DNA from: Candidatus Thalassospirochaeta sargassi
GTDB lineage: Bacteria > Spirochaetota > Spirochaetia > UBA9216
Direction: 5' to 3'
Length of the DNA: 64,000 bases
Assembly (NCBI GenBank): GCA_028532855.1
Contig: JAQQAL010000002.1
Coordinates: 5,901-69,900, forward strand
The position numbers and the translations under genes were made by a program. The notes under the pieces are model-generated. The model was not told where the DNA came from. It did no database searches and saw nothing but the letters and a program-made list of their open reading frames with translations. How positions within the stretch are numbered: the stretch's first letter is position 1; each line of letters starts with the position of its first letter. Positions 5,031 through 32,308 of the stretch are shown here, in pieces.

Positions 5031-5044
5031 ATAAAGGAAAAAAA

Positions 5045-8258: not shown

Positions 8259-8276
8259 AACTGTTTATAATTAAAA

Positions 8277-8360
8277 TTATAAATGTCAGGCACCGGTATC
8301 AACGTTTAGTGAGTTAAAAGATTTAGATTCACTCCGGAGCAGATCTATTTAAACGTTGAT
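8277..8360. repeat. 16-bp near-perfect inverted repeat (CCGGTATCAACGTTTA / TAAACGTTGAT(G)CCCGG) with a ~47-nt spacer.
   Basis: Read directly from the sequence downstream of the tkt stop. No T-run follows, so it is not a classic terminator. Confidence 0.4.
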
Positions 8361-8829
8361 GCCCGGTAGCTTTTTGTAGTAATAAACGCAGCGTAAGCGG
8401 CAAATCTTCTCTTCTTGTAAAAGTTTAAAAAAATATTATCCTCCTTGAAAAGTCGAGGATGAAAAAGCTGGGTAAAAAGATTACAAACTTGGAGCAAATA
8501 TTTGTAACCGTCAAAATAACTACACCTGCAGTTCGAATTTGAATCTGCTAAACTCTGCAATTGATAAATAAACAATACACCGATGGAGAACGAAAACTCT
8601 ATCCAAAATAGTGGCATGAATCAGACTATCGGGCAATAGGTTTTGTTTGGAGAATAATATATGACAGACTATGTTTTATAACTGGACCAAAGAACGTCAT
8701 AAAAAAACAATTGAAAATTCAGGCTTTATAAAAATATTAAGTTTGAAGGTCACTGCACTAAAAATAATGTAATAATTGAACACGATGGTTAGAATATAAG
8801 TCTATCGCCAGGTTTTGATTTAAGGTGGT

Positions 8830-9350
8830 TTTAATTCCCCGCCCCTTGGGGCGAAAATATGTAATACTGCATGAATGGATGAGTATATCTACAAGAGTCA
8901 TAATAAGACGCAATTGTTATATTATTTGGTCTTTCCAGCAAAGTATCGACGTAAAGTATTCACAAGCGAAGCGGAAGAAAGTCTAAAAGAGATATGTCTA
9001 GGGATCCTGGAAAGAGATGAAATAAAGTTTGTAGAGATAGGTTATGAGGAAGATCACATTCATATGTTAGTACAAGGAGTGCCGACAATGGCGGTATAAA
9101 AGTTAGTAACAATAATAAAGATTTTGACAGCGAAAGAGATCTGCAGGAGGTATCCGAAAATTAAAAGGGAAATACTGTGGGACGGAGCGTTGTGGACGGG
9201 CGGCTACTACGCAAATACAGTATGATTATATACGAGTAAAGAAGTGATAAAAAGTAAATACAGAGTCAAGGAAAACAAGAAGAATATGTGGAAATCTATA
9301 CAGGCCAAGTAGATTCAAATTTGGGAATATGATACCCCGCCCCTTGAGTT
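8830..9350 (+). mobile_element. Degenerate IS200/IS605-family element, about 520 bp and internally decayed.
   Basis: Direct 11-mer 'ccccgcccctt' at 8837-8847 and 9335-9345. The left copy forms the palindrome cgcccc-ttg-gggcg, as in IS200 subterminal hairpins. A TnpA remnant lies inside. Confidence 0.5.
8875..9226 (+). pseudogene. tnpA: IS200-type Y1 transposase TnpA, truncated and frameshifted.
   Basis: First frame ends early at 9099 with the HuH motif 'HIHMLV'. The continuation is in another frame at 9122-9226 ('ILTAKEICRRYPKIKREILWDGALWTGGYYANTV'), which is a typical TnpA C-terminus. Confidence 0.6.
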
Positions 9351-17022: not shown

Positions 17023-17110
17023 AATTTTACGAGATTTAACAAAACTGAACAAATCAGTATTGTTTCAAAGTCCGGCAGCTGATGCCGGGCTTCATTTAAA
17101 GGAGATTATC

Positions 17111-17572
17111 ATGGGTTTTACAGAATACATTGTTGAGAAGAAAGCAGTAATATGCGGACTTGAGGTTGATACATGGGAAGATGCCATTCTAAAGGGCGGA
17201 CGGATACTGGTTGATAATGGAGCAGCGTCTGAAGATTATCTGGCTACTATAATTAGAAAATGTAAGGACAACGGTCCCTACATTGTAATCGCACCGGGTA
17301 TAGCAATGCCACATGCAAGACCGGAAGAGGGTGCTCTGTCGCTCGGATATGGAATAGTTACCCTGAAAATGCCGGTAAGTTTTAAAGATCCTGATAATGA
17401 TCCTATAAGCCTGCTGATTTTTATGGCGGCACCGAGTGTTAAAGAACATAACGAGGAAGCGGTCTCTCAGATTGCCGATCTCTGTGATGATGAAGATGCA
17501 GTAGAGGCGATGATTAAGGCGTCCGACGTATCGGAAATATTGACAATACTTGAGAATGTTGAGGGAGAATAA
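17111..17572 (+). CDS. mtlF: PTS mannitol-type EIIA.
   Basis: 'GIAMPHARPE' phosphorylation-site histidine motif. ATG at 17111 preceded by RBS 'aaggag'. Confidence 0.8.
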   Translation: MGFTEYIVEKKAVICGLEVDTWEDAILKGGRILVDNGAASEDYLATIIRKCKDNGPYIVIAPGIAMPHARPEEGALSLGYGIVTLKMPVSFKDPDNDPISLLIFMAAPSVKEHNEEAVSQIADLCDDEDAVEAMIKASDVSEILTILENVEGE

Positions 17573-17631
17573 AATTACCTCCATGTGATTTTATTATTAG
17601 AAGTATCATAGGACAAATCAGGAGTGAGCAA

Positions 17632-17892
17632 ATGGTAAAAGGAACAATTTTAGTAAGCAATCCTACAGGACTTCATACAAGACCTGCAAAGAATGTAGTC
17701 GCGAAGGCAAAACAATTTGAAAGCAAAATTATTATCAAATATGGAGAAAAGGAAGCGGATGCGAAGAGTCTGCTTAAGATAATGAAGCTTGGTATTACAC
17801 AGAATAACGAGATTGAGCTGCAGTGCGACGGATCCGATGAAGAAAAGGCCCTCAGTACTATGACTGAGTTTATCCTCAACCTGGAGGGTTGA
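17632..17892 (+). CDS. ptsH: Phosphocarrier protein HPr.
   Basis: 86 aa with 'GLHTRPA' (His15) and a Ser46-region 'KSLLKIM'. Confidence 0.9.
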   Translation: MVKGTILVSNPTGLHTRPAKNVVAKAKQFESKIIIKYGEKEADAKSLLKIMKLGITQNNEIELQCDGSDEEKALSTMTEFILNLEG

Positions 17893-19607
17893 TTATGACC
17901 GGAATTTCCGTATCGGACGGTATCGCTCATGGTACTGCATTTATAATTGACGAAGAGCACTCTATTGAAGATAGAAAAATAGACTCCGGAGATCTGAAGG
18001 CGGAAATTGCAAAATTTCTGGAAGGACGTGACAGAGCTGCTGTCGAACTCGAGAAGTTAATATTGAAAGTCCGTGTGGAACTCGGCGATGATAAGGCGGA
18101 GATTTTTGAGGGGCATCTCGAAATTCTCAGTTCAGATGATGTTGAAGAGGGCGTTATTGAGATTATCACTGAGAATCTGATTTGTGCAGAAAAAGCTTCT
18201 GAGATTTTTGCTGAAGAAAATGCGAAAGAAATGGAAGAGCTCGATGACGAATACTTCAGAGAACGCGGACAGGATTTCAGGGATATAGGAAAGCAGCTTG
18301 TAAAGGGAATAATCGGATCAGATTTGAATGATGCCGAACTGCCTGAAGAAGCTATTGTTATCAGTGAAGAGCTAACACCATCTCAGACCGCTGCATTGGA
18401 TATGTCGAAAGTGAAGGGATTTATTGTCCGCAAGGGCGGAAAGAATTCACATGCAGCAATTATCGCCAGATCACTAGAGCTGCCTGCGATCATACTTGAG
18501 GATGATAATTCTTTTTCACAATTCAGACCGGGCGATATAGTATACATTGACGGAGAAAGCGGAGAACTCTGGATAAATCCAAGACAGGAAATTGTCCGGA
18601 AGATTGATCGAAAGTATAAAAGCAGGCAGAAAGAGAAGGCTGAACTCATGAAGCTATTGAATCTGCCTACGGAAACTGCTGACAAAAAACCGGTTGGGTT
18701 ATATGCAAATGTAGGTGGACTTTTTGATATTGATAACGCTAAGAAATACAATGCAGAGGGTATTGGACTGTTCAGAACCGAGTTTCTGTTTATGGAAACC
18801 AAGAGTTGTCCTACCCTTGAAAGGCAGACGCATGTATACCAATCAGCAATAGAATCTCTTGAAGGCCGGAACGTAATAATCCGCCTTCTTGATACCGGTG
18901 CTGATAAACCCCTTTCTTATATGCCTCTTCCTGAAGAAGATAATCCCTTTCTCGGTATCCGGGGAATAAGGCTTCTTTTTCAGAAAGAAGATATTCTGCG
19001 GACCCAGATCCAGGCACTTCTAATGGCAAGTGAAGCCGGATCTGTCGGCATGATGATTCCGATGATAAATTCTCTCAAACCGATACAGCGTGTGAGAGCC
19101 ATTATCGAAGAAGAAAAGCAGGCGCTTGCGTGGAAGGGCCCGGAAAATCTAAAACTCGGTGTAATGATAGAAACGCCTGCGGCTGTTCAGCTGATCGAAG
19201 ACATCCTTGATCAGGTTGATTTTATAAGCATAGGTACCAATGACCTGACTCAGTATACCCTGGCTGCCGATCGCGGTAATCCGTCTATGAATGAATACTA
19301 CGACGAGTTTCATCCTGCTGTACTACGCTCGATTGCTCATGTAATCAAACAGGCTGGTAAAAAGAAAAAGCTGAACGGAATATGCGGTGAGCTTGCCGGC
19401 AATCCGCTTGCGCTTCCGTTTTTCGTCGGTCTCGGTGTGGATGAGCTGAGTACAAATGCTTCTAATATTTTGAGGCTGAAAAAGATAATCAGAAAAATAG
19501 ATTCCGGTGAGGCGAAAGACCTTGTTCAGGAGATTCTCAGGATTCCGGCCTCTGAGGGGATCCGCGCCAGGCTGAATCGTTTTCTGAATGAAAGAGATCT
19601 TATATAG
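17889..19607 (+). CDS. ptsI: PTS Enzyme I (phosphoenolpyruvate-protein phosphotransferase).
   Basis: 'GGKNSHAAIIARSLELPAI' plus a PEP-utilizing TIM-barrel C-domain. ATGA overlap with ptsH. Confidence 0.9.
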   Translation: MIMTGISVSDGIAHGTAFIIDEEHSIEDRKIDSGDLKAEIAKFLEGRDRAAVELEKLILKVRVELGDDKAEIFEGHLEILSSDDVEEGVIEIITENLICAEKASEIFAEENAKEMEELDDEYFRERGQDFRDIGKQLVKGIIGSDLNDAELPEEAIVISEELTPSQTAALDMSKVKGFIVRKGGKNSHAAIIARSLELPAIILEDDNSFSQFRPGDIVYIDGESGELWINPRQEIVRKIDRKYKSRQKEKAELMKLLNLPTETADKKPVGLYANVGGLFDIDNAKKYNAEGIGLFRTEFLFMETKSCPTLERQTHVYQSAIESLEGRNVIIRLLDTGADKPLSYMPLPEEDNPFLGIRGIRLLFQKEDILRTQIQALLMASEAGSVGMMIPMINSLKPIQRVRAIIEEEKQALAWKGPENLKLGVMIETPAAVQLIEDILDQVDFISIGTNDLTQYTLAADRGNPSMNEYYDEFHPAVLRSIAHVIKQAGKKKKLNGICGELAGNPLALPFFVGLGVDELSTNASNILRLKKIIRKIDSGEAKDLVQEILRIPASEGIRARLNRFLNERDLI

Positions 19608-19730
19608 AAGGAATGATAAAAAGAAGCCATTTTTTATCATTTTGAAGATTACGGTAAAACTTTGTGTTGTCCATAATCTTCACCTTCGTGGCCTGTCCTC
19701 AATGGCAGGATATTTTAAAAGGAGAAAAAA

Positions 19731-21068
19731 ATGAAAACAGCAGTGCATTTCGGCGCAGGAAATATAGGTCGTGGCTTCATCGGAAGTCTATTGTCGGCCT
19801 CAGGTTACCATGTGACGTTCGCAGATATTAGTAAAACCATCATTCCGGAGCTCAATGCCCGCGGAGAATATATCGTCGAAATAGTCGGTGAGGAAAAGCG
19901 TGAGATGAAAGTTTCTCCCGTTTCCGGAATCTATTCAAACGAACCGAAGCTTGCAAAGATTATAGCGGAAGCTGAAATAGTCACCACAGCGGTAGGTCCC
20001 GGTGTCCTTCCGCATATTGCCGCGCCGATTGCCCGGGGGATTACAGCACGTAAAGAGGCTGGAAATGAGAAGCCCCTGAATATTATTGCATGTGAGAATA
20101 TGATCGGCGGTTCATCAAAACTCAAAGCCGAGGTCCTTACTCATGTGAAGGCTGATGTTCGTAGTTTTGTCGAGAAAAATGTCGGATTTCCCAATTCGGC
20201 TGTCGACCGTATAGTTCCCCCTATGGAAGAAACTGAAGAGCTGCTTCGGGTTCGTGTTGAAGAATTCAGTGAATGGATTGTTGAGAAAGACAGTTTTATC
20301 GGTGAGGTTCCGAAAATTGAAGGAATGCATGCTACGGCCGACTTGATGAAATATGTGGAGCGTAAGCTGTTCACTCTGAACACAGGCCATGCAATTACCG
20401 CTTATCTTGGTGCTTTGCAGGGACATCGTACAATAGCCGAGAGTATCAGCGACCCTCAGATTCTTCCTGTTGTCCGCGGTGCAATGAACGAGAGCGGTGA
20501 AGTTCTCATCCTGCGCTACGGTTTTGATCGGGTTGCTCATACAGCTTATATAGAAAAGATTCTTGAAAGATTCCGCAATCCATGGCTCAAGGATGAGGTT
20601 GACCGTGTAGGACGCCAGCCGTTGCGAAAACTTGGTGCCGACGACAGGCTTATTAAGCCTCTTCGCGGTGCTATTGAATATGGTACTTCTTATCGAAACC
20701 TGGTCGTCGGTATTGCAGCTGCACTTTATTTCCGAAACGATGAAGATGATCAGGCTGAGAAGCTTGAGGGCCTGCTTGCGTCTCTGGATGTAAAGTCTGC
20801 AATTCCGGAAATAACCTCACTTGTGGATGACGATATAATTAAGGCCATTGAGGAAGCTTATGAAATCCGTGGTATAGAAGATCTGCACAGGGATTTCGTC
20901 TCTAACTGGACCCGGATAGTCTCGGCTATGGAAGCCGAACAGCATTTTCCGGAACTACTCAAGGAAGCCCTTTCCGGACGTGAAATTATTGTAGCTAAGA
21001 GTGGTATTCCCCTTGTCCGTATAACAGCTGTAGCTCCGGCCCCGCCAAACTACCAGGCTGGATTCTAA
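19731..21068 (+). CDS. mtlD: Mannitol-1-phosphate 5-dehydrogenase.
   Basis: 'MKTAVHFGAGNIGRGFIG' Rossmann N-terminus. At 445 aa it is longer than the canonical ~380 aa. Confidence 0.85.
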   Translation: MKTAVHFGAGNIGRGFIGSLLSASGYHVTFADISKTIIPELNARGEYIVEIVGEEKREMKVSPVSGIYSNEPKLAKIIAEAEIVTTAVGPGVLPHIAAPIARGITARKEAGNEKPLNIIACENMIGGSSKLKAEVLTHVKADVRSFVEKNVGFPNSAVDRIVPPMEETEELLRVRVEEFSEWIVEKDSFIGEVPKIEGMHATADLMKYVERKLFTLNTGHAITAYLGALQGHRTIAESISDPQILPVVRGAMNESGEVLILRYGFDRVAHTAYIEKILERFRNPWLKDEVDRVGRQPLRKLGADDRLIKPLRGAIEYGTSYRNLVVGIAAALYFRNDEDDQAEKLEGLLASLDVKSAIPEITSLVDDDIIKAIEEAYEIRGIEDLHRDFVSNWTRIVSAMEAEQHFPELLKEALSGREIIVAKSGIPLVRITAVAPAPPNYQAGF

Positions 21069-21074
21069 AATAGT

Positions 21075-21103
21075 CCACCGGCTTTGTCGGTGGGACATTT
21101 TTG
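21075..21103 (+). terminator. Rho-independent terminator after mtlD.
   Basis: Hairpin CCACCG-gctttgt-CGGTGG followed by 'gacattttt'. Confidence 0.6.
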
Positions 21104-21171
21104 AAAAATCATGCTATAATAAACGGCTTTCCGAATAAAAGTGATGATATATAAAAAGGGTCTGTTATAAA

Positions 21172-23217
21172 ATGAAAGACCGCCAGAAAAAGATACTTCG
21201 GTTTATGCTTCTCACTGAAGGTATGCTTCATATTGAAGATATTGCAGAAGTGTTTTCTGTCGGCAAAAGAACGGTTTCCAGGGATCTGGATACCATAGAA
21301 CAATGGCTTTCGTTCCGGGATGCAGGGCTTGAGCGAAAGCCTAACCAGGGCATCCGTGTAATGACCTTCGGCAGAACCGCGGATGAATTGCTTGATATAG
21401 TTAACACCCCCAACAACTATCTTGAATCTCTTGATGCTGAACATCGCCAGAGGCTGATCCTTCTTTATCTACTGTTCAGCAACTGTGAAGTAAAGATCTC
21501 GTCTATCGCAAACGTATTTTATATAAGTGATACATCAGTCTGGAGTGATTTGAACCAGATAGAAAACAGGCTTGAAGGATCGAAATTAAGGATTGAAAGA
21601 ATGAAGGGGGTCGGTATCAGGCTGTCGGGGCCGGAGTCTGTGATGAGGTTAGGTTTTCTTTCGGTCCTGACTGAAGCATATTCTTCACATACTATCATTC
21701 CTTATCTTTATGCGGTCCGGGAGGATCGGGGCTCATTCCTTGAGATAAATCAACTAAAATTCCTGATGAACAGATTGAATTTTTCGGAGAACAGTACTGA
21801 AATTTTTAATACAATTGCAGAACTTCAAAATGAGCTTGGATACCAGTTTACGATGTCGAGCGAATCACTACTTTATTTCTATTTGCAGCTCAGCATACAC
21901 CGCATAAAATCAAAGGCCTTAATAAACGAGACTGGAGCCTTTGGTTGTTCACCGTTTTTTGCAGGACTTGGAGAGCGTGTGCTTGATAAGTTAACGGCCG
22001 GGCTTCTCGACGGCAGGCTTCCTGACAGTGAATATTGTTTTTTGGGGCTTTTGATGCAGATCCTCGAGCCGGGAGATATAAACAGGATTAATACTGAAGA
22101 ACTCTTCGGCGGGATGATAACTGAAGACATTGTTTCATTTACCAGTGAGCTGATATCTGAATTCGGCAGAATAGACAGTAGACAGTATTATTTGAATGAT
22201 CAGATTGAGTCAAAAATGCAGATTATATCGGCTTCGCTGGTTAAGAGGCTTGAGAACGGAATCCCCTTTTGGCACGGTGAATGGGGCGAGACAACAGAGG
22301 AAACCTGGAACCGGTCGGTGAAAGCCGGAGTTCTGTCGGAACTGCTGAAGAGATATTTCGGGCTGGAGCCGGATCCGAGAGATATCGATTATATTCTGCT
22401 CTATTTTCATTCCATGGTTTTTAATGAAAAGGATCTCCCTGATAAAAAAGTTCGCTGTCTCGTCTGCTGTTTTGAAGGAATCGGACTTGCATCCTATCTC
22501 AGTTCAATACTGACAAGGGAAATTAGTTCAATAAACATCGTTGAAGCAACGGCTGTCTTCAGGATAAAGCAGGAATACCTTGATGCTAATGGTATCGAAC
22601 TTGTAATCTCAACGTTTCCGATTGCGGAACTTGATATCCCGGTAATCCCTGTTTCGCTTCCGCTGAATCGCGAAATGGTGGTGAGGCAGATAGAAAAAGC
22701 AGTCGGGGATCTGAAAACCCGTGAAGCATCTGTCTATTCTGAGTCTAAAAATCTGTTGGTTGAGAATAATACAGGGCGGCTGTCGTTGAGTAACATTATA
22801 AGCTTTATCAACGACTTCAGTCTGGTAAGATTTTCTTCCTCAAATAGTATTGACGCTATAATCGATCAGCTTCCAACCAGACTCGATGAATTCGTAACAG
22901 ATAGATCTTTGCTTTCGGAGGATTTTAGAAAGCGTGAGGCGTTGGGGCCGCTGATTGTTGAAGAGTGGGGACTAAAAATCCTTCACTGTAAATCGACTGC
23001 GGCGGTAAAACCCGTTGCCGGAGTAATTGCCTTTGATGACGAGACTGCAGTGAGAATGCTTTATTTGATTTCACCGGATCCCTGTCCGGATCTGGAGCGT
23101 AAGATGCTCTCCACAATTACTGTGTCATTTCTGGAGAACCGTGATTTTAGAAAATCAATTCTTACCGGCGGCATCGAGGATATGAAAAAAGAACTTCTGA
23201 ATATCTATCAGTCTTAA
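21172..23217 (+). CDS. mtlR: PRD-containing mannitol operon transcriptional activator (HTH + PRD1/PRD2 + EIIB-Gat-like + EIIA-Mtl-like).
   Basis: 681 aa. N-terminal DeoR-type HTH, an EIIB-like 'RCLVCCFEGIGLASY' and a C-terminal EIIA-like domain. Adjacent to the mtl operon. Confidence 0.75.
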   Translation: MKDRQKKILRFMLLTEGMLHIEDIAEVFSVGKRTVSRDLDTIEQWLSFRDAGLERKPNQGIRVMTFGRTADELLDIVNTPNNYLESLDAEHRQRLILLYLLFSNCEVKISSIANVFYISDTSVWSDLNQIENRLEGSKLRIERMKGVGIRLSGPESVMRLGFLSVLTEAYSSHTIIPYLYAVREDRGSFLEINQLKFLMNRLNFSENSTEIFNTIAELQNELGYQFTMSSESLLYFYLQLSIHRIKSKALINETGAFGCSPFFAGLGERVLDKLTAGLLDGRLPDSEYCFLGLLMQILEPGDINRINTEELFGGMITEDIVSFTSELISEFGRIDSRQYYLNDQIESKMQIISASLVKRLENGIPFWHGEWGETTEETWNRSVKAGVLSELLKRYFGLEPDPRDIDYILLYFHSMVFNEKDLPDKKVRCLVCCFEGIGLASYLSSILTREISSINIVEATAVFRIKQEYLDANGIELVISTFPIAELDIPVIPVSLPLNREMVVRQIEKAVGDLKTREASVYSESKNLLVENNTGRLSLSNIISFINDFSLVRFSSSNSIDAIIDQLPTRLDEFVTDRSLLSEDFRKREALGPLIVEEWGLKILHCKSTAAVKPVAGVIAFDDETAVRMLYLISPDPCPDLERKMLSTITVSFLENRDFRKSILTGGIEDMKKELLNIYQS

Positions 23218-23790
23218 AATTTCACGAATTATCGCAGATATATACCCTTTTCGAACGCATGCTTGAGTTTTTTATCAACTCGAGATTTCATGTACTGCTT
23301 TCATATTTTTTCAGGTAACTGAAACCATTTTCCCATCCGGAGTTTTATTAGCTCCTTGATGTGGTCGTAATGGCCTTACGAAACTGTTTTCAAAAAAAAA
23401 TCAAAAACTGCTCCATTGCTTCCCTTTAAAGTATTTAAAGTGCGAGCGTGAGAGCAGTTGTTTAACAAACTCTCGGGAAGGGCTTACTGTAAGATTATGC
23501 CGGTTTGTTTTCTTCGACTTGAGCAGAATTACAATAAAGAAATATTTCGTCATCAATGAAGCCGACGGAACTGAAATACACCATGTCATAGTTGAGCCTG
23601 TCCTTTTTATATCACGAGTATTTTGGGACTATTGGATATTTTTTTATTGACAATACTTTATCGAATGACTTATAATTATCCCGATAAAGCTTGGTGGAAG
23701 CTAAAAAAATATAATAACAAAACATCTCATGCAGGAGTAGACTATTACTATTTTCTATTCAGGGTGAGGTGCGAGCAAAGGGAAGGACAA

Positions 23791-24453
23791 GTGGCTGAAA
23801 AAAAAGAAACGATCCTCGATCAGAAAGTAACCCGCCGCGATTTTCTCAAGATATCCGGAATGACGGTATTGGGAACCTCTGCAGTAACCTGGTTATTTCC
23901 CGGCTGCAGCAATGCAACCAACGACGATGTAATGATGTTTGAATCAGCATCAGGAGTAATTATTCACATACCGAACAGATGTACAGGCTGTCTGCTTTGT
24001 GAAGCAACCTGTTCAGTTGTAAACGATGGTAAGGCAAGTCAGACAACCGCAAGGTTAAAGGTAAGCAGAAACCTTGCTTACGGTCCCGAAGGAGTAACCG
24101 GACCCTGGTGGAACAACGATGGAGATATGGGAAACCATAGAATCATAGCTGAGACCTGCCGCCAGTGCGAAACACCGGCATGCGCTCTTGCCTGTCCCGA
24201 GCAGGCGATCTACCAGGATGAGAAGACTGGAGCAAAGGTTGTAGATACCGAAAAATGTATCGGCTGCGGTACCTGTACGGATGCCTGCCCCTGGCATATT
24301 CCGACGGTAGATCCTGACCTCAAGGTTTCTACTAAATGCGTTCTTTGTCACGGATACCCCGGCTGTGTTTCAGTATGTCCAACCGGTGCACTGAATTTTG
24401 TAACCTGGGCAGAAGCAATTCAAAGATACAAAGAGCACTTTAAGGTAAGCTAA
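23791..24453 (+). CDS. Twin-arginine (Tat) signal 4Fe-4S ferredoxin-like subunit, YdhX-like.
   Basis: GTG start at 23791 after RBS 'aagggaagga'. Tat motif 'TRRDFLKISGMTVLGTSAV'. Four Cys clusters of CxxCxxCxxxCP type. Confidence 0.75.
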   Translation: MAEKKETILDQKVTRRDFLKISGMTVLGTSAVTWLFPGCSNATNDDVMMFESASGVIIHIPNRCTGCLLCEATCSVVNDGKASQTTARLKVSRNLAYGPEGVTGPWWNNDGDMGNHRIIAETCRQCETPACALACPEQAIYQDEKTGAKVVDTEKCIGCGTCTDACPWHIPTVDPDLKVSTKCVLCHGYPGCVSVCPTGALNFVTWAEAIQRYKEHFKVS

Positions 24454-24463
24454 GGAGAATAAT

Positions 24464-26581
24464 ATGGCAGTAAAAGGCGGATGGGCAGGAAAGATCCTCA
24501 GGGTTAATTTGTCCACAGGAAATATAGAACGAATCAATACGGAAAATTTTATCAGATATATCGGCGGAATGGGAATTGGCTACAAGGTAATGTGGGATGA
24601 GGTTCCAGCCGGAACAAAGGCATTTGACAAAGATAATAAAATCATCTTTGGTGTAGGCCCGTTGACAGGTACTGGTGCAATGTGTTCGGGAAGAACAAAC
24701 ATTACATCCCTTCTCCCATCAAACCCCTACAATGCTGTGAGCGACAGCCACATGGGCGGGCACTTCGGTGTCGAACTTAAGTACGCCGGATGGGATGCAA
24801 TCATCATTGAAGGCAAATCATCACGGCCGGTATGGCTGAAGATTGTCGACGACAAGGTGACCCTTGAGGACGCCGGCATTTACTGGGGCGAGGGGACCTT
24901 CGCAACTATAGCCGGCATCACCGCAATGATGGGAAAACAGAGCCAGGTTGCGGCTATCGGCCAGGCCGGTGAAAACCAGGTTAACCTAAGCGTAATCCGT
25001 ACAGGTCCGAGCCACTCAGCCGGCGGACATGGTGGCGTACTCGGTTCAAAGATGCTGAAAGCTATCGGTGTCATGGGAACCGGTGCAGTCAATATTGCCG
25101 GAGACAAGATGAAATGGCACGAGCTTAACAAATACGCGCTCAGCCTGGTTGGTGCGAACAACCAGCATGTTGTTCCCCGCACACCACAGCCCTGGGCTGA
25201 ATACAGCCATCCGGGCAGCCGCTGGACTGCAAAAGACGGACTCTACTGGGAAAAGGCTGATCCCCCTATTGAAACGGGCACAATTCGGCCTGAAGAAACA
25301 AACCGGATAGGTTACCGCACAATGAAGGCAATGCTCGATCTGGGCAAGAATGGTCCGAAGTATACAGTCAGAATGGGCGGATGCGCGGCATGCCCCGTCC
25401 GCTGTAAAACCCATCTTGAGGTTCCGCAGCTTGAGCAGTATGGAGTCGATCCGCATGTTGCAAATACCTGTATGGGATTCTACAGTCCCTGGGGGGTTCT
25501 GGCCGGTATATCAGGAGGCAAAGCAAGTGTTCCCGGAGAGTCAAAAGATGATGCTTCCGTTATCGCAAAGGCTCTCGGCGCACATTATGCCGACGATTAC
25601 GGTGTCTGGTGTAACTACGGTCAGATTGGGCGCGACTTTGCCTGGACCTATAAGCATGGCGTTTTAAAGCGAGTTCTTCCGACTGCAGAATACAACAGCA
25701 TCGACTGGGAGTCGATTGAAGCCGGGGATCCTGCAATCTTTGCCGATTTTTACCGCAGAATTGCCTTCAAGGAAGGTGAACTCAGTCACTTGGGAGATGG
25801 AGCACACTATATTTCAGAGAGATGGAACCTCGGTGAAGATTACTGGACATACAAGGGCAACAAGCTCTGGACGAAGATCGGCTACCCGGTTCATCACAGT
25901 AATGAATCAGACGCACAGGTTGGTTCTCTCATAAGTTCAATGTTCAACCGCGATGCACAGAGCCATACTCATCAGAATTTTATCGGCAGTGGCCTTCCCA
26001 CCGAGGTACAGAAGGACATTGCTGCAGAACTCTGGGGCAGTGCAGATGCGATAGATGAACCTGCAAACTATAAACCTGTAACAAAAGCAAAGATGAAATT
26101 CGCCAAGTGGAGTATTGTAAGAAACCTGCTTCACGACAGTCTGACAGTATGCAACTGGATGTGGCCGATGACTACCTCACCTCTGAAAGAGCGTAACTAT
26201 CGGGGTAACACTGCACTTGAAGCTTTATACTACACAGAAGCTACGGGAGAAGAAATTTCGGAAGAAGAACTTGATCTGCAGGCGGAAAAGCTTTTCCACC
26301 TTCATAGAGCACTGACTATCAGACAGATGGGGACTGTGGATATGAGAAACACACACGACCAGCTTACAGGATGGCAGTTCGATATGGATCCTGATAAAAA
26401 AGCTTTCGAACCGGGAACAATCAAACTCGATCGTGAAGATTATGAAAACACCCTGACTATGTTCTATGAAGAGATGGGCTGGGATCCTAAAACCGGTGCT
26501 CCCACAAGGGCTACACTGGAAAAACACGATCTTAAGTTTGTTGCTGATGATCTTGATGTTAAGAATCTTCTTCCGGCTTAG
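24464..26581 (+). CDS. Aldehyde:ferredoxin oxidoreductase-family tungsto/molybdo-pterin enzyme, long (705 aa) YdhV-like type.
   Basis: AOR N-domain 'ILRVNLSTG...GGMGIGYKVMW...GPLTGTG...GVELKYAGWDAIIIEGKS...AAIGQAGEN...GSKMLKAIG'. No signal peptide of its own. Confidence 0.85.
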   Translation: MAVKGGWAGKILRVNLSTGNIERINTENFIRYIGGMGIGYKVMWDEVPAGTKAFDKDNKIIFGVGPLTGTGAMCSGRTNITSLLPSNPYNAVSDSHMGGHFGVELKYAGWDAIIIEGKSSRPVWLKIVDDKVTLEDAGIYWGEGTFATIAGITAMMGKQSQVAAIGQAGENQVNLSVIRTGPSHSAGGHGGVLGSKMLKAIGVMGTGAVNIAGDKMKWHELNKYALSLVGANNQHVVPRTPQPWAEYSHPGSRWTAKDGLYWEKADPPIETGTIRPEETNRIGYRTMKAMLDLGKNGPKYTVRMGGCAACPVRCKTHLEVPQLEQYGVDPHVANTCMGFYSPWGVLAGISGGKASVPGESKDDASVIAKALGAHYADDYGVWCNYGQIGRDFAWTYKHGVLKRVLPTAEYNSIDWESIEAGDPAIFADFYRRIAFKEGELSHLGDGAHYISERWNLGEDYWTYKGNKLWTKIGYPVHHSNESDAQVGSLISSMFNRDAQSHTHQNFIGSGLPTEVQKDIAAELWGSADAIDEPANYKPVTKAKMKFAKWSIVRNLLHDSLTVCNWMWPMTTSPLKERNYRGNTALEALYYTEATGEEISEEELDLQAEKLFHLHRALTIRQMGTVDMRNTHDQLTGWQFDMDPDKKAFEPGTIKLDREDYENTLTMFYEEMGWDPKTGAPTRATLEKHDLKFVADDLDVKNLLPA

Positions 26582-26586
26582 GGAAA

Positions 26587-27129
26587 TTGACTGATATGTC
26601 TGATAATATACCGGCGCTCGCCGCCGGTTTCATAAGAGAGCAGTCCCGAAAAGGACTGCTCTCAACTGAAAATAATGTTATTAATAGATTTGAGCAGGAT
26701 GCAGGGAATGGCCTTTCTCTCTCTGAACTCAGTGAGAATAAGGAATATGGCGATCTTCAGAGAATCAGCGGGGAAAAGGCTGATTACTGGTACTCAACAT
26801 CCTGCATGACCAGCAGCTATGCTGAAATTGCAGTGCTGCTTGAAGAAAAAGATCTGCTAAGCCTGATTGTTAACACCGTAAGAAGGGAAAGCAGCCTGTA
26901 CCCAAGGCCGACGGCTATAGAGATTTTTGAATATTCTCCATATTTCATGAAGAAAGAAGAGATTGAGACTATGATGTCAATAATTGAAAATGATACCAGA
27001 TACTCAGATATTGAGAAATGTGCAACATCGATCGATAAGTTTTATCTTTTTTCTACAAAGTTTCTTCCGAAAGCACAGGCAGAATACCTCAGTGAATGGG
27101 ATGCAGTGGGACAGTATGAAAATCAGTAA
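26587..27129 (+). CDS. Hypothetical protein inside the AOR operon.
   Basis: 180-aa ORF. Translationally coupled to the AOR (5 nt after its stop) and overlaps fdhD. No motif recognised. Confidence 0.4.
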   Translation: MTDMSDNIPALAAGFIREQSRKGLLSTENNVINRFEQDAGNGLSLSELSENKEYGDLQRISGEKADYWYSTSCMTSSYAEIAVLLEEKDLLSLIVNTVRRESSLYPRPTAIEIFEYSPYFMKKEEIETMMSIIENDTRYSDIEKCATSIDKFYLFSTKFLPKAQAEYLSEWDAVGQYENQ

Positions 27130-27787
27130 TCATAAACCAAATCCGGTAGAACTTCCAATTGTAGATGAAGTAAAGTTCAAACTTTTTATTAATGGTGTTT
27201 ACTATAGTGATTTCCTGTGTACACCAGAGAGTATTGAAGAACTAGTACTTGGATATCTTTACACAAATTGTCATATATCAACAGTACATGAGCTTGAAAA
27301 GATTATAATAAAGGAATATAAAATAAATGCAGAATTAAGGCGTTCCACACCGCAGGAAGCTTTAACACCATTAAAAAAAAGCATTAAGCTGCCGGACAAA
27401 CAGAAATTAAGGAGAATGGCCCTCAAAATGTTCAGTACTGCTTCTATCTATAAAAAACACGGTGGAATACATTGCAGTGCATTTACTGATGGAGAGACTC
27501 TGCTTGCGTTTAAAGAAGATATAGGCCGGCATAATGCGTATGACAAAGTAGTAGGCGAACTTCTGATGAAAGAGCTCGATCCCTCGGAGCTGATTTATAT
27601 TACTTCCGGCAGAGTCAATCATGAAGTGATGCAGAAAACCCTCGCGGGGAGAATCCCGGCGATAGTATCAAGAAGCATATGCTCAAGTGCGGCCTATAAT
27701 GCGGCGCTTGAAAACGGGGTTGTGGTTATAGGACGAATTCTCGAAGATTCGCCAATTGTATACGGAAAGGAAATCATGAATGTCTGA
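27116..27787 (+). CDS. fdhD: FdhD-family sulfurtransferase (cofactor sulfuration accessory protein).
   Basis: 'GGIHCSAF' active-cysteine region and FdhD-like length. ATG at 27116; an alternative ATG is at 27101. Confidence 0.65.
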   Translation: MKISNHKPNPVELPIVDEVKFKLFINGVYYSDFLCTPESIEELVLGYLYTNCHISTVHELEKIIIKEYKINAELRRSTPQEALTPLKKSIKLPDKQKLRRMALKMFSTASIYKKHGGIHCSAFTDGETLLAFKEDIGRHNAYDKVVGELLMKELDPSELIYITSGRVNHEVMQKTLAGRIPAIVSRSICSSAAYNAALENGVVVIGRILEDSPIVYGKEIMNV

Positions 27788-28553
27788 AGTGATGACTGAT
27801 CAAGAAACAACAATGGCATTCCGCGCCCATCTTAAGGCGTTGAAACGCACGCTTATTGTATGTCTGATAAGCTTTATATGCGCTAGTGTAATATGTTTCC
27901 TGTTTTTTGACCCTATTGTCGAATTTCTTTATGCTCCTTTTCTTTCAATCGAAAACGCTGGAACTGAGGATACGCTCTTTATTAATAATATTTTTGAAGG
28001 ATTTCTTGCCAAATTAAAGATATCATTACTTTCAGGTCTGACGCTGAGTTTTCCGATTATTCTTTTCAGTGTTCTTAGATTTGTATTTCCTGCTCTCTCA
28101 AAGAAAGAGCGCAGGGTTATTCTTTATACGCTTATAATCAGTGCAGTACTTGTACTTGTCGGTTTCTATTACAGCTATTATTTGATACTGCCCATAACGA
28201 TAGACTTTTTCACAAGCGTAGGCTTTCTTCCGGATAATGTCGGAATTCTACTGAATTATCAGAATAATATAATCTACATCTTCAAATTCATTTTTATGAT
28301 AATGATAACATTTCAGTTTCCGGTACTGATGGAGATGCTGATGATAACAAATATAGTCGAAAGAAAAACGCTTTTAGGTTTTAGCAGATACATTATAGTA
28401 GGCGTTTTTTTACTTGCCGCAATCATTACCCCGCCGGATTTTGTCTCGCAATGCATGATTGCATTTCCCATGATATTTCTTTATTTTCTAGCTATTCTCA
28501 TAGCGAAAATATTTGGATTTGGAAAATCGATAGAGGGTAAAAATGGCAAATAA
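27780..28553 (+). CDS. tatC: Sec-independent translocase TatC.
   Basis: 257 aa with six TM helices. N-terminal 'AHLKALKRTLIVCLISF' is typical of TatC. Overlaps fdhD by 8 nt. Confidence 0.85.
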   Translation: MSEVMTDQETTMAFRAHLKALKRTLIVCLISFICASVICFLFFDPIVEFLYAPFLSIENAGTEDTLFINNIFEGFLAKLKISLLSGLTLSFPIILFSVLRFVFPALSKKERRVILYTLIISAVLVLVGFYYSYYLILPITIDFFTSVGFLPDNVGILLNYQNNIIYIFKFIFMIMITFQFPVLMEMLMITNIVERKTLLGFSRYIIVGVFLLAAIITPPDFVSQCMIAFPMIFLYFLAILIAKIFGFGKSIEGKNGK

Positions 28554-28866
28554 TGGAATAGGTTTCAGTGAGATACTCATTATACTTGTTATCTTCCTTA
28601 TTTTTGTACGCCCCTCAGATATGCCCAAAGTTGTCAGAACAATTGGTAAAATCTGGGCCAAATTCTATCTGTATTTTTCGATGTTCAAGCGTGAGATGAG
28701 AAATATGGAAAAAGAGATTGGTATTGAAGATGAGATGAAGGAGATACGGGCAATCAATGCTCAGCTCAACAGCGAGGTAATATCACTGAGAAACAGTGTT
28801 AACAATATTGTAGATAAAAACGAGTTGGCAGATCTCAAGAAAACTGAAATCAGTAAGGAGAATTAA
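28543..28866 (+). CDS. tatB: TatA/TatB-family protein, long TatB-like form.
   Basis: 'GIGFSEILIILVIFLIFVRPSDMPKVVRTIGK' is a TM helix plus hinge with an amphipathic extension. 107 aa. Confidence 0.6.
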   Translation: MANNGIGFSEILIILVIFLIFVRPSDMPKVVRTIGKIWAKFYLYFSMFKREMRNMEKEIGIEDEMKEIRAINAQLNSEVISLRNSVNNIVDKNELADLKKTEISKEN

Positions 28867-28867
28867 G

Positions 28868-29029
28868 ATGTTAGGAACAACAGAAATTATCGTAATCGGC
28901 GGCGTTGTCGTTCTACTATTCGGAGCCAGCGCTATTCCCAAATTTGCCCGCTCTTTGGGCAAGGCTAAAAAAGAATTCAAGGAAGGCGTAAACGAGGGAC
29001 TTGAAGAGCAGAAGGAAGGAGATAAATAA
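28868..29029 (+). CDS. tatA: TatA. This 54-aa ORF is absent from the supplied ORF track.
   Basis: ATG at 28868 lies 1 nt after the tatB stop. Translation is 'MLGTTEIIVIGGVVVLLFGASAIPKFARSLGKAKKEFKEGVNEGLEEQKEGDK', a canonical TatA/E. Confidence 0.75.
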   Translation: MLGTTEIIVIGGVVVLLFGASAIPKFARSLGKAKKEFKEGVNEGLEEQKEGDK

Positions 29030-29080: not shown

Positions 29081-31315
29081 TTGATGGATACGAAACGCTT
29101 AGTAATCCTCGGCGGAGGATATGCCGGCATAGAAGCCGCAAAAACACTGTATAAAAAATACAAAAAAAATGATAAAGTAGAGATAACTCTTATCGATAAA
29201 AACACTTACCACACCCTTATGACCGAGCTTCATGAGGTTGCAGGTTCAAGGGTCGAACCTGATTCAGTCATGGTAAGCTATCAGAGAATTTTCTCGGGAA
29301 CCAATATCAACCTTGTTACCGATGTTATCACCGGAATTGATTTTGAAACCAGAAAACTTAAATCAGATAAAGCTGAATATGATTATGATTACCTTGTTCT
29401 GGGAACCGGGGGAGCCCCCGAGTTTTTCGATATTGAAGGTGTTCAGGAAAATTCATTCTCACTCTGGTCGCTTGAGGATGCTATGCGTATCCGTGAGCAT
29501 TTTGAAGAACGCTTCAGGCTTGCCGCAAATGAACCGGATGAGTCTCTAAAAGCACAGATGCTTACTTTTGTTGTGGCAGGAGCAGGTTTCACCGGGATCG
29601 AGCTTATTGGTGAGTTTATCGAGCGCCGCGATGTGCTCTGTGCAAAATACCATATACCCGTCAAAGATGTCAGAATGGTTGTTGTAGAGGCGCTTGATTC
29701 AGTTCTCCCTATCATTGAAGAACCGCTTAGAAAAAAAGCGGTTAAATATCTGAAAAAGAAGGGTGCCGAGATAATCCTGAATGCACGAATTACCGGTGCC
29801 GCGGAAGGAAAAATCCTGCTTGCCGATGGAAGTGAAATAAAAACCGATACATTCATCTGGACCTGTGGAATTCATGGCTCCGAGTTTACCTCAAAGATTA
29901 ATCTCACTAAAGGACATACTGCCCGCGGCGAATGCAGCATTGCGTCAGCGGAGGGAATACACGGTATGTGCGGCTGCCGCTTTGATGAAGACGAGCGCTA
30001 TGTTGTTGGGAAACGCGGACGTATTCTCGTAAATGAATATATGCAGACGGACGATTATGAGAATGTATATGCAGTTGGAGACAACCTCTGGTTTGTTGAA
30101 AAAGAGAAGGTCCTCCCTCAGATAGTAGAGACCGCTCTTCAGACGGGGGAAACTGCTGCTGAAAATATTATTGCAGAAATTGAGGGTAACGATAAAAAAG
30201 CCTTCGAATCCAACTACCATGGTTTCATGGTATCAATTGGCGGTAAATACGCTGTTTCAAACGCCGGCGGAATGAAAACCTCGGGCTTTATGGCCATGGC
30301 GATGAAACACCTTGTAAACCTTCACTATCTCTTCGGAGTTGCCGGTATAAACGCGATATGGGGTTACCTTAAACACGAGTTCTTTGACATGAAAGATCGC
30401 AGAACCTTCATTGGCGGTCACCTGTCCTGGAAGATTCAGGGCTGGTGGGCTGTACCTCTGAGAGTATGGCTGGGTCTGATGTGGGTTTTTGAAGGTATCA
30501 ATAAGATAGGCGAAGGATGGTTTAACTTCTCCGCCGGCTCAAAATCCGGATGGATGTTCAGTTCCGGGGTGCTTCAGAAGGGCGTAAAACCCGCGGCAGA
30601 CGCATACAGCGCAGCCAGCGGTGCCGGTGAAACGGCTGTAGAGGCAGCAGGTCACGCAGATATGACTGCTGTATTCGACTCTGCAATGCCTAATCCGCAA
30701 CACGGTTCCGACGCTGTAAGTGCAGCTTCCGATTATGCAGCCGGTGCTGCCGAAGCGGTAGTTGAAGCAGCAGCCGATACTGTCAGCGCAGCTTCCGATT
30801 CTGCAGCCGTTGCAGTTGAGGCTGCTGCCGACGCTGTAAGTGCAGCATCCGATTATGCAGCCGATGCAGCTGGCGCTGCCGCCGACACCGCCGGACAGGT
30901 CTTCGGTAAGATATGGGATCTCGGTAATAATATAATTCCCTACGAATCAGGGTTTGTAACCTGGTTCAGAGAAACCTTTATGGATGGAATTGCGGCCTAC
31001 ATTCATTACCCTGTTTTTCAGGTGATGATAGTACTGGTTGAAATAGGGATAGGGCTTGCGCTGATGGGTGGATGTTTCACATTCATAGCAGCCGGTGTTT
31101 CAATAATTATGTGCCTTGTATTTACATTCTCGGGTATGTTTGCCTGGGATCAGGCTTGGTTTGTTTTTGCAGCTTTTCTGCTTCTAGGCGGAGCCGGACG
31201 TTCGCTGGGCCTTGATCACTGGATTATGCCGGCGATCAAACGATGGTGGAATGGAACAAAGCTTGCACGCAGAACACACTGGTTCGTTGGAGAACCTAAA
31301 ACAAGAAATAAATAA
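29081..31315 (+). CDS. Fusion protein: type-II NADH dehydrogenase-like FAD/NAD(P) oxidoreductase N-domain, an Ala/Ser/Asp-rich repeat linker, and a DoxX-family membrane domain.
   Basis: N-terminal 'LVILGGGYAGIEAAK' and a second 'VVAGAGFTGIEL' Rossmann motif. C-terminal 'LRVWLGLMWVFEGINKI' is a DoxX motif with four TM helices. Total 744 aa. Confidence 0.7.
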   Translation: MMDTKRLVILGGGYAGIEAAKTLYKKYKKNDKVEITLIDKNTYHTLMTELHEVAGSRVEPDSVMVSYQRIFSGTNINLVTDVITGIDFETRKLKSDKAEYDYDYLVLGTGGAPEFFDIEGVQENSFSLWSLEDAMRIREHFEERFRLAANEPDESLKAQMLTFVVAGAGFTGIELIGEFIERRDVLCAKYHIPVKDVRMVVVEALDSVLPIIEEPLRKKAVKYLKKKGAEIILNARITGAAEGKILLADGSEIKTDTFIWTCGIHGSEFTSKINLTKGHTARGECSIASAEGIHGMCGCRFDEDERYVVGKRGRILVNEYMQTDDYENVYAVGDNLWFVEKEKVLPQIVETALQTGETAAENIIAEIEGNDKKAFESNYHGFMVSIGGKYAVSNAGGMKTSGFMAMAMKHLVNLHYLFGVAGINAIWGYLKHEFFDMKDRRTFIGGHLSWKIQGWWAVPLRVWLGLMWVFEGINKIGEGWFNFSAGSKSGWMFSSGVLQKGVKPAADAYSAASGAGETAVEAAGHADMTAVFDSAMPNPQHGSDAVSAASDYAAGAAEAVVEAAADTVSAASDSAAVAVEAAADAVSAASDYAADAAGAAADTAGQVFGKIWDLGNNIIPYESGFVTWFRETFMDGIAAYIHYPVFQVMIVLVEIGIGLALMGGCFTFIAAGVSIIMCLVFTFSGMFAWDQAWFVFAAFLLLGGAGRSLGLDHWIMPAIKRWWNGTKLARRTHWFVGEPKTRNK
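30700..30880 (+). repeat. In-frame ~60-bp tandem repeat (3 copies) encoding 'DAVSAASDYAA...'.
   Basis: Near-identical 34-mers 'gacgctgtaagtgcagc(t/a)tccgattatgcagccg' at about 30708 and 30828, with a diverged copy at about 30775. Confidence 0.6.
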
Positions 31316-31327: not shown

Positions 31328-32308
31328 TTGCCGGTAGTGAAGGAAATTGTTACTTCTACACATGATAAACAACTCAAAGAAGATCTAGCTGAAGTAAAGG
31401 ATATTCTTGGTGAAATCGCTGATACCGCCCCGGGCATAGTCAGAGAGGACATAAGGAAGCTTGTTTCCGGAAACGGTAAAATGCTTCGACCCTCGTTTAC
31501 TACCATAGCAGGACGCTACGGTAATTTTGAGGGCGAACGCATTTATAATATGGCTGCCGCAGTAGAGCTTCTTCATAATGCAACACTGATTCATGATGAT
31601 ATAATTGATGATGCTTCTATAAGACGCGGCAAGCCTGCAATCCATATGCTGCATGGTAATAAACTCGCGATACTTGCGGGCGATTATCTTTTTTCGAGGA
31701 GTATTGTAGTTGCTTCTGAAAAATCCCGAACAGCACAATACGGGCGGCTCGCAGGAGCCGTCGCTAAAATCTGTGAAGGTGAGATAATTCAGGATTCCGA
31801 AAAATATGTTCTTAATCCAAGTATACGCAGCTATAAAAGAAGAATAGCCGGAAAAACCGCAGTTCTTTTCGCTATAAGTCTATATATCGGAGCCAATGAA
31901 GCAGGCTGCTCCAGCGACGACTGCTCCACCTTCTCCCGGATTGGTTACAACGTCGGCATGGCATTTCAGATTATTGATGATTTACTCGATATTACCGGGA
32001 CTCCAGCGGTAACAGGCAAGCCCACCGGCCGTGATATTACAGAAGGGATCTACACCCTCCCCGTGCTGTATGCACTTGAAAATGATGACGGCAGACTTGG
32101 ACGACTGCTTTCTAAATACCCCTACCGCAGACATACTGTAAAAAAGATAACGAAGCTTGTCTGTGAATCTTCCGGTCCTGAAAAAGCTGCAGCTCAGGCG
32201 GAATTATACTCTGATCGTGCCATGAGAGAGATCAGTAAACTTGATGAAGGCTACACAAAATACCAGCTTTCTGTCTTGGTGAAAAATCTTCTGAAACGTA
32301 ATTATTAA
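31328..32308 (+). CDS. Trans-polyprenyl diphosphate synthase (hepta/octaprenyl; menaquinone side chain).
   Basis: 'LIHDDIIDDASIRRGKP' first DDxxD motif and 'FQIIDDLLD' second motif. TTG start at 31328, which is uncertain. Confidence 0.8.
   Translation: MPVVKEIVTSTHDKQLKEDLAEVKDILGEIADTAPGIVREDIRKLVSGNGKMLRPSFTTIAGRYGNFEGERIYNMAAAVELLHNATLIHDDIIDDASIRRGKPAIHMLHGNKLAILAGDYLFSRSIVVASEKSRTAQYGRLAGAVAKICEGEIIQDSEKYVLNPSIRSYKRRIAGKTAVLFAISLYIGANEAGCSSDDCSTFSRIGYNVGMAFQIIDDLLDITGTPAVTGKPTGRDITEGIYTLPVLYALENDDGRLGRLLSKYPYRRHTVKKITKLVCESSGPEKAAAQAELYSDRAMREISKLDEGYTKYQLSVLVKNLLKRNY

Follow-up and report, generated by a model that had tools for sequence, protein, structure and literature searches.

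A spirochaete operon that probably encodes a periplasmic YdhV-type pterin oxidoreductase together with the organism's ordinary Tat translocase

If one operon encodes a pterin enzyme, a ferredoxin with a twin-arginine signal and the genes of a twin-arginine translocation (Tat) machinery, is that machinery reserved for its neighbour, and is the whole a new system? The question is raised by seven co-directional genes at 23791-29029 on the + strand of a 64-kb stretch of DNA (the window) from the spirochaete Candidatus Thalassospirochaeta sargassi; all coordinates are positions within this window. The genes encode, in order, a ferredoxin (Fd), an enzyme of the aldehyde ferredoxin oxidoreductase (AOR) family, a YdhW-family protein, an FdhD-family protein, TatC, a TatB-like protein and TatA. 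We conclude that they probably specify a spirochaete member of the YdhV-type, periplasmic, membrane-associated pterin oxidoreductases (Class V of the tungsten oxidoreductases (WOR), clade 41), in a single operon that includes the organism's ordinary Tat translocase.

How firmly can the seven genes be read? From the ferredoxin gene to tatA the successive junctions measure 10, 14, -14, -8, -11 and 1 nt, and the genes are translationally coupled throughout. Hidden Markov model (HMM) matches across the operon proteins have E-values from 1e-14 to 0, so the identifications are not chance. An earlier reading, made from the sequence alone (the sequence-only reading), had proposed this tightly packed run, and every gene in it is confirmed, essentially where it had been placed.

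What kind of enzyme is the 705-residue product of the second gene (WorL; 24464..26581, +)? To the NCBIfam YdhV equivalog NF007354 it scores 1104.1 bits (cutoff 868) over model positions 4-703 of 703, and it contains both Pfam domains of the family, AFOR_N (202 bits) and AFOR_C (136 bits). The cysteines of the CxxCxxxC...C [4Fe-4S] site (C307, C310, C314 and C563) are invariant in 14 sequences. Cys336 aligns with Cys336 of Escherichia coli YdhV, which, like Cys322 of BamB, is a protein ligand to the metal that only YdhV and BamB share (PMC12096430, a 2025 review). The best matches are from Spirochaetales (83% identity), followed by Marispirochaeta and Oceanispirochaeta (68-69%); identity is about 63% to clostridial and fusobacterial YdhV (Cetobacterium, 63%), 61% to a more distant Spirochaetaceae locus (L090) and 55% to E. 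coli YdhV. Matches in the PDB align mainly over the N-terminal domain. By profile and residue, then, the enzyme is a YdhV equivalog and a member of Class V. It begins directly at the conserved AOR N-terminus, with neither extension nor signal peptide; the long YdhV-like enzyme lacking a signal, as first proposed, is borne out.

Is the system undescribed, as had been suggested? It is not. In the tungsten oxidoreductase classification of June 2026, Class V, clade 41 and the YdhV clade are the same group, defined by a Tat-signal S subunit that implies periplasmic, membrane-associated enzymes (PMC13328260). Class V accounts for more than 10% of all AOR/WOR enzymes and is represented among gut bacteria, yet none of its members has a known activity or physiological role (PMC13328260). 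The neighbourhood of CsWOR41 from Cetobacterium somerae already holds a Tat-signal ferredoxin, YdhV, YdhW, tatAE/tatC and FdhD (PMC13328260), and the E. coli operon ydhYVWXUT belongs to the same type.

The window operon resembles the CsWOR41 LSW cluster in its Tat-signal S subunit, its YdhV-type L subunit, its YdhW-type third gene and the predicted periplasmic, membrane-associated location. It differs in several respects. In CsWOR41, tatA/tatC and FdhD adjoin the operon, whereas here the FdhD-like gene lies inside it and encodes a protein from which the Cys loop is deleted. The Tat genes here are of the three-component native spirochaete type, those of Cetobacterium of the Firmicute tatA-tatC type, and the two TatC proteins are 28% identical. 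Unlike CsWOR41, the window operon has no adjacent TupABC or MoeA, and its ferredoxin has a lipobox-like Cys that the Cetobacterium ferredoxin lacks. Spirochaetes are not among the phyla listed for the class (PMC13328260).

With the E. coli operon the window shares the first three genes and their order, at identities of 39% (ferredoxin), 55% (AOR) and 32% (YdhW). E. coli adds YdhX, a second Tat ferredoxin, YdhU, a cytochrome b, and YdhT; in the window, tblastn detected no YdhU or YdhT, and YdhX matched only the single YdhY-like ferredoxin. The twin-arginine pair of E. coli YdhY is degenerate (TRLEFLR), and in that organism fdhD and tatABC are encoded elsewhere. This operon was reportedly described by Partridge et al. 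in 2008, and YdhV is said to have been characterised by Reschke et al. in 2019. BamB, of the sister AOR clade, shares the Cys metal ligand and has the ferredoxin partner BamC (PMC12096430); it gives a PDB match at E 4e-39. BamB is however cytoplasmic, within the eight-subunit Bam complex, has no Tat signal and no YdhW or FdhD linkage, and is similar mainly in its N-terminal half.

If the enzyme itself bears no signal, how might it leave the cytoplasm? The first gene (23791..24453, +) encodes a 220-residue YdhY-like ferredoxin (WorS) that starts at the GTG at 23791, preceded by GGGAAGGA, and its N-terminus reads ...QKVTRRDFLKISGMTVLGTSAVTWLFPGCSN. Four CxxCx(2-5)Cx3C motifs provide 16 cluster cysteines for four [4Fe-4S] clusters, with one further Cys, and the protein matches Fer4_11 of Pfam. 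Its twin-arginine motif, TRRDFLK (23830-23850; within TRRDFLKISG), is intact, matches the consensus and is followed by a 17-residue h-region, which confirms the four-cluster, twin-arginine ferredoxin that had been proposed. Non-enterobacterial orthologues keep the motif; identity is 39% to YdhY and 31% to YdhX of E. coli. Within the window this is the sole open reading frame with a Tat-like signal. Since the ferredoxin bears the Tat signal and the AOR has none, hitch-hiking export is the natural reading, and the distribution of signals supports the earlier suggestion to that effect. Such export is known for hydrogenase-2 (HybOC) and DmsAB of E. coli, where one subunit bears the signal and its folded partner is co-exported. 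Here the Fe-S subunit would carry the signal and the pterin subunit would be the passenger, an arrangement that is the reverse of DmsAB and resembles that of the hydrogenase.

How widely is the arrangement conserved? We compared 37 loci of the YdhV clade with 52 loci of other AORs, drawn from the matches listed for a genome collection, with the closest spirochaetes added individually; these were searched by tblastn and with HMMs that were built from the window proteins and iterated. Wherever the flanks of a YdhV-clade locus are covered, the core Fd-AOR-YdhW is present. The complete order Fd-AOR-YdhW-FdhD-tatC-tatB-like-tatA is found again in a Spirochaetales metagenome-assembled genome (L083), in Oceanispirochaeta crateris (L084), in Marispirochaeta (L085) and in L088. 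The more distant Spirochaetaceae locus L090 has Fd-AOR-YdhW-FdhD-tatA-tatC, and the order Fd-AOR-YdhW-FdhD-tat is thus found in six spirochaete loci; the module is conserved in related spirochaetes, a point on which the sequence-only reading had asked for a check. FdhD adjoins 14 of the 37 YdhV-clade loci (spirochaetes, Clostridia, Natranaerobius, a Rhodospirillaceae, a Desulfovibrio and an Anaerolineae) and none of the 52 others (Fisher p = 8e-7, uncorrected for phylogeny), a linkage specific to the YdhV clade among the AOR loci compared. A tat gene adjoins 11 of 37 YdhV-clade loci against 1 of 52, with no Proteobacteria or Desulfobacterota among the 11; the linkage of tat to ydhV appears in phyla with scarce Tat cargo and not in Proteobacteria.

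Is the translocase dedicated to this cargo? TatC (257 residues; 27780..28553, +) scores 150.8 against TIGR00945 (cutoff 132.7) and has six hydrophobic segments by hydropathy, predicted as transmembrane (TM) helices. The TatB-like protein (107 residues; 28543..28866, +) opens with a GIGFSE-TM helix, after which comes a long, amphipathic helical stretch, and its orthologues adjoin TatC in other spirochaetes; against TIGR01410 it reaches 52.1, just under the cutoff of 56.5. TatA (28868..29029, +) scores 57.7 against TIGR01411 (cutoff 53.9) and 51 bits against PF02416. The complete translocase proposed earlier thus stands as regards TatC and TatA, while its TatB-like member falls just short of its profile; TatA is present as claimed, with its length corrected from 54 to 53 residues.

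The whole might then be an undescribed periplasmic AOR system in which tatC-tatB-tatA forms a second translocase, serving the ferredoxin-AOR complex only. The maturation genes are overlapped or directly adjoined by the tat genes, the only Tat-signal reading frame of the window is the ferredoxin, and the adjacency of tat and ydhV has arisen from two different Tat lineages and is enriched as given above. What do the relatives of the Tat proteins say? The window TatC is 44-47% identical to spirochaete TatC proteins in other genomic contexts, its homologues being found at 44-49%; TatA is 59-67% identical to the TatA of Alkalispirochaeta L091 and of the spirochaete loci L092 and L093; and the TatB-like protein shares 39-43% identity with the long TatA/B paralogue that adjoins TatC in L092 and L093. 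In L093, tatC-tatB-tatA lies amid a tRNA synthetase gene and other housekeeping genes, in L092 the tat genes adjoin a flavocytochrome, and in L091 they adjoin a Tat-signal molybdopterin oxidoreductase whose partners are Fe-S, NrfD-type and TorD-type proteins. From the complete genome of O. crateris, a word-filtered protein search with the window TatC recovered a single TatC, the cluster copy; this is only an indirect proxy for the search for a second, housekeeping tat set that had been proposed, though the outcome comes near to one that the sequence-only reading had itself named as counting against dedication.

The Tat proteins thus group with ordinary spirochaete Tat, and O. crateris yielded a single TatC; for these reasons the set is probably not dedicated, and the substrate-dedicated pathway of the sequence-only reading is not supported. 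Tat genes beside a principal cargo are in any case familiar: tatAd-tatCd with phoD in Bacillus subtilis, and tatAC with fepABC in Staphylococcus aureus, where translocase genes adjoin or are co-transcribed with a substrate in organisms with few Tat substrates. A sole Tat system beside its main cargo is known in Firmicutes, as with tatAC-fepABC of S. aureus. In B. subtilis, tatAdCd-phoD is one of two paralogous systems and is truly cargo-selective, whereas here there is no evidence of a second. As a YdhV-type system is also already in the literature (PMC13328260), we regard a dedicated translocase within an undescribed system as unlikely. To judge from these sequence groupings, it is likely that the window tat set is the organism's general Tat machinery, placed beside a major cargo, and not a second, cargo-specific paralogue.

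Could cargo and translocase have arrived together, as a self-contained export cassette acquired horizontally from Firmicutes or Fusobacteria? The cluster-linked TatC of L090 shares 39-43% identity with its counterparts in the clusters of Anaerosolibacter, Cetobacterium and Hydrogenoanaerobacterium and only 27-31% with other spirochaete TatC, and for the window AOR, identity to the YdhV of L090 and to clostridial and fusobacterial YdhV is about equal. The Tat proteins of the window clade group, however, with native spirochaete Tat, and apparently only the Fd-AOR-YdhW-FdhD core is shared with Firmicutes; transfer of a complete cassette is accordingly improbable. Because the TatC of L090 is Firmicute- or Fusobacterium-like while the Tat of the window clade is of native spirochaete type, these comparisons suggest that tat genes became linked to a YdhV cargo at least twice, from different Tat lineages. 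In Alkalispirochaeta L091 (10001-20771), the molybdopterin oxidoreductase genes are followed by genes for UbiE, UbiA and a polyprenyl synthase; in these spirochaetes, genes for quinone biosynthesis tend to lie close to those for Tat and its cargo.

What role might be played by the FdhD-family protein (27116..27787, +, with an alternative GTG start at 27092)? It scores 148.1 bits against PF02634 (FdhD-NarQ; cutoff 27.2), and is below both equivalog cutoffs, with 115.1 against 140.9 for TIGR00129 and 108.5 against 269 for NF001943. In the alignment, the loop that in E. coli FdhD holds Cys121-x-x-Cys124 is deleted, as it is in L083, in the O. crateris cluster copy, in Marispirochaeta and in L088; the FdhD of L090 and of Firmicute clusters keeps a single-Cys 'CGSG'. 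The window protein retains GGIHC and EDIGRHNAYDK, and all aligned copies keep GG(I/M)H and ED-GRHNA-DK. Compared with FdhD/FdsC chaperones (PDB 4PDE and 2PW9), it belongs to the same Pfam family and conserves the C-terminal, cofactor-binding domain with these two motifs; it differs in the deleted loop, in its scores below the equivalog cutoffs and in its presumed client, which binds a nucleotide-free bis-pterin, whereas that of FdhD/FdsC binds bis-molybdopterin guanine dinucleotide. Cluster-linked copies are 33-38% identical between spirochaetes and Firmicutes, and only 22-26% identical to a second FdhD of O. crateris and 20-23% to E. coli FdhD. This suggests an FdhD-like subfamily that travels with the Fd-AOR-YdhW core.

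Might the FdhD-like gene instead serve a formate dehydrogenase encoded elsewhere, as a mere neighbour of the AOR genes? Formate dehydrogenases are the established clients of FdhD (PMC6239281), and no experiment links FdhD to an enzyme of the AOR family. Its adjacency is nevertheless conserved over five phyla in the 14 YdhV-clade loci and absent from all 52 other AOR loci, the gene overlaps ydhW by 14 nt and tatC by 8 nt, and O. crateris retains a separate, more canonical FdhD 12 kb upstream of the cluster while the cluster copy has diverged to below the FdhD equivalog cutoffs. We consider the mere-neighbour explanation very improbable.

Does the presence of this gene imply, as had been claimed, a sulfurtransferase and hence a sulfido ligand on the metal? 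A gene of the FdhD family is indeed present; the conclusion drawn from it is weaker than had been claimed, the Cys loop being gone. FdhD-family proteins act chiefly as cofactor-binding chaperones, and their CXXC motif is neither conserved nor essential (Schwanhold et al., PMC6239281). We therefore reject the loss of the loop as proof against sulfur transfer, and a sulfido ligand is possible without being compelled. The X-ray absorption data on YdhV of Reschke et al. (2019) reportedly suggested 'a cysteine and likely a sulfido ligand', which serves as a lead only. In E. coli, FdhD works with the cysteine desulfurase IscS, and FdhD genes accompany the YdhV clade. For these two reasons the co-purification of the recombinant large subunit CsWOR41L with host IscS, which its authors regard as coincidental (PMC13328260), may be meaningful.

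The third gene (26596..27129, +) encodes 177 residues, or 180 if the TTG at 26587 is the start, and the proposal of a YdhW-like protein is confirmed by its match to NF007411 (131.8 bits, E 3e-38, below the cutoff of 203), by PF27264 (YdhW_C) in a precomputed record and by its position directly after the AOR gene, which a YdhW homologue occupies in 30 loci. The protein is soluble, with no TM helix predicted, and fast-evolving: its identity is 48% where that of the AOR is 83%, and 32% to E. coli YdhW. A search for homologues yielded 2 proteins only. A part in maturation or as an escort may be proposed for it. In Proteus, Brenneria, Leminorella and a Rhodospirillaceae, YdhW is extended at its N-terminus by a segment that contains an RR-like motif (SRRRWLLPLS, KRRLLLPLS, GRRRFLRLATG), which no hydrophobic h-region follows; the motif is not present in spirochaete and Firmicute YdhW.

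Could the FdhD-like protein and YdhW together be the missing maturation system of YdhV? No cofactor chaperone for YdhV has yet been identified (PMC9103625), and recombinant Class V large subunits (CsWOR41L) made without FdhD or YdhW are inactive (PMC13328260). We put forward tentatively, as a possibility that we rate below even chances, that the FdhD-like subfamily has been adapted to bind and deliver a nucleotide-free, possibly sulfurated bis-pterin and that YdhW acts as an escort or proofreader for Tat export.

Where would the mature complex reside? The h-region of the ferredoxin signal ends in a lipobox-like LFPGC, with Cys39 at 23905-23907. A lipobox-like Cys occurs in 19 of about 33 ferredoxin orthologues, as LLPGC, LLGC, LFGC or LSGC, E. 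coli YdhY included, and spans four lineages (spirochaetes, Firmicutes, Enterobacteria and an alphaproteobacterium). From these motifs we lean towards the view that the ferredoxin is a Tat-exported lipoprotein anchor, and such a lipid anchor would explain membrane association without YdhU. In YdhY of Enterobacteria (E. coli, 11852-12478 of its locus) and in a Rhodospirillaceae orthologue the twin-arginine pair is degenerate (TRLEFLR or TRQEFLR), while the same proteins retain a textbook lipobox, LLSLLGC; the second ferredoxin, YdhX, with a true twin-arginine signal, is added only in lineages whose YdhY is degenerate. That the complex is cytoplasmic and the ferredoxin N-terminus a vestigial signal, as perhaps in E. 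coli YdhY, could be argued from the loss of the second Arg in enterobacterial YdhY and from cytoplasmic YdhV variants predicted in Coriobacteria (PMC4257093), and is scarcely credible here, where an intact twin-arginine motif fits the consensus, conservation extends to the h-region and the lipobox-like Cys, and the tat genes lie in the same operon.

With what might a periplasmic complex exchange electrons? The operon is followed after 54 nt, with no terminator between, by a gene for a 743-residue fusion protein (29084..31315, +) and then by one for a HepT-like long-chain polyprenyl-diphosphate synthase (31328..32308, +), which would make a quinone side chain; both are probable accessory parts, and the transcription unit probably extends to 32308. 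The N-terminal 400 residues of the fusion are a type II NADH:quinone oxidoreductase (NDH-2; PDB 4NWZ, E 6e-69; Pyr_redox_2), and its C-terminal membrane domain comprises about four TM helices, interrupted by an Ala/Asp-rich insert. This insert, of some 100 residues, is Ala/Asp/Ser-rich and quasi-repetitive (SAASDYAAGAAEAVVEAAADTVSAASDSAAVAVEAAADAVSAASDYAADAAGAA) and lies at about 30590-30895, between the first and the later TM helices. No Pfam family was matched by the C-terminal domain at E up to 0.01; a faint similarity to DoxX was seen only in an orthologue. The synthase matches PF00348 and, below its cutoff, TIGR02748 (236.8 bits). Both genes are again found behind tatA in L083, and in Anaerosolibacter (L003) they lie close to the cluster. 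In O. crateris, genes for a TIGR03701 menaquinone decarboxylase (MqnL-like, 644 bits), an MqnP-like prenyltransferase and UbiX lie directly 5' of the cluster; the same region (1-9134) also holds the second, more canonical FdhD (267 residues), a U32 protein (UbiU/TrhP-like) and an ABC ATPase and permease, and has the look of an island for quinone biosynthesis and respiration. The NDH-2 fusion and prenyl synthase downstream in the window, and the late menaquinone genes upstream in O. crateris, suggest from gene content a menaquinone-linked periplasmic redox module.

How, on the reading that we prefer, would the YdhV-type complex be assembled and used? In the cytoplasm, the FdhD-like protein, as a cofactor-binding chaperone, would deliver a nucleotide-free bis-pterin Mo/W cofactor to the apo-AOR; the cofactor may be sulfurated, and YdhW may assist or proofread. 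The folded ferredoxin-AOR heterodimer would then be exported by TatCBA on the signal of the ferredoxin. The Cys after the h-region would be lipidated and so anchor the complex on the periplasmic side of the membrane. There it would exchange electrons with the menaquinone pool, which the NDH-2 fusion and the prenyl-diphosphate synthase would supply or connect to.

Several points weigh against this reading, in whole or in part. The Pfam TAT_signal match of the ferredoxin is weak (17.5 bits, below the cutoff of 22.7), and the Pro at position -2 of its lipobox is atypical. That the cluster carries the sole tat locus is an inference from a word-filtered protein search and not from a genome scan. 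The biochemical role of the FdhD-like protein may differ from that of FdhD, because the Cys loop is deleted and the equivalog scores lie below their cutoffs. For YdhW, an AlphaFold model from a 2-sequence alignment is unusable (predicted local distance difference test score 45.7), and a 19-sequence profile found no relative in the PDB, even to E 5. The NDH-2 fusion and the prenyl synthase are not in the O. crateris, Marispirochaeta and L088 loci, and may be mere neighbours. The window contains no membrane quinol-dehydrogenase subunit of the YdhU or NrfD type, so that the reading gives no account of how electrons would pass from quinol to ferredoxin. Finally, which way the electrons flow is a guess, because the class has no member with a known activity or substrate.

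What controls the operon? A promoter-like site, TTGACA-18-TATAAT, lies at 23647..23676 (+), about 115 nt 5' of the ferredoxin gene, and is recognised by 12/12 consensus matches only. Further upstream, a terminator-like hairpin (23262-23284) closes a regulator gene. The region 15628-23217 encodes a mannitol phosphotransferase system (EIICB, EIIA, HPr and EI), mannitol-1-phosphate dehydrogenase and a 681-residue Mga/HTH_11 regulator, and seems to be an independent unit for sugar utilisation; a regulator specific to the YdhV-type operon was not seen. Rfam gave no riboswitch 5' of the operon. The sole molybdenum- or tungsten-cofactor riboswitch of the window (RF01055, 65 bits, 55350-55482) serves another AOR, on the - strand at 53140-55482, where it is followed by genes for a small ferredoxin (about 54945-55328) and for a classical AOR of 599 residues (53140-54939; AFOR_C 398 bits). 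Besides the YdhV-type enzyme the organism therefore possesses a cytoplasmic AOR of the S-L type under riboswitch control.

What does the locus add to the known YdhV-type system? New relative to it are the FdhD-like protein without a Cys loop, the conserved lipobox-like Cys, the probable extension by the NDH-2 fusion and prenyl synthase, and the spirochaete host. The substrate problem of the Class V WOR/YdhV enzymes is not solved by this locus. If the proposed maturation pair is real, it would explain why recombinant YdhV and CsWOR41L expressed without partners have shown no activity, and it would extend FdhD-type chaperoning, and perhaps the sulfido ligand, from the dimethyl sulfoxide reductase family to the AOR family. 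Two points are of direct use: the lack of an identified chaperone for the YdhV cofactor (PMC9103625) and the inactivity of large subunits made without FdhD or YdhW (PMC13328260). The operon is a compact, complete genetic unit, with a promoter-like site, both subunits, two candidate maturation factors and the translocase, and could guide co-expression.

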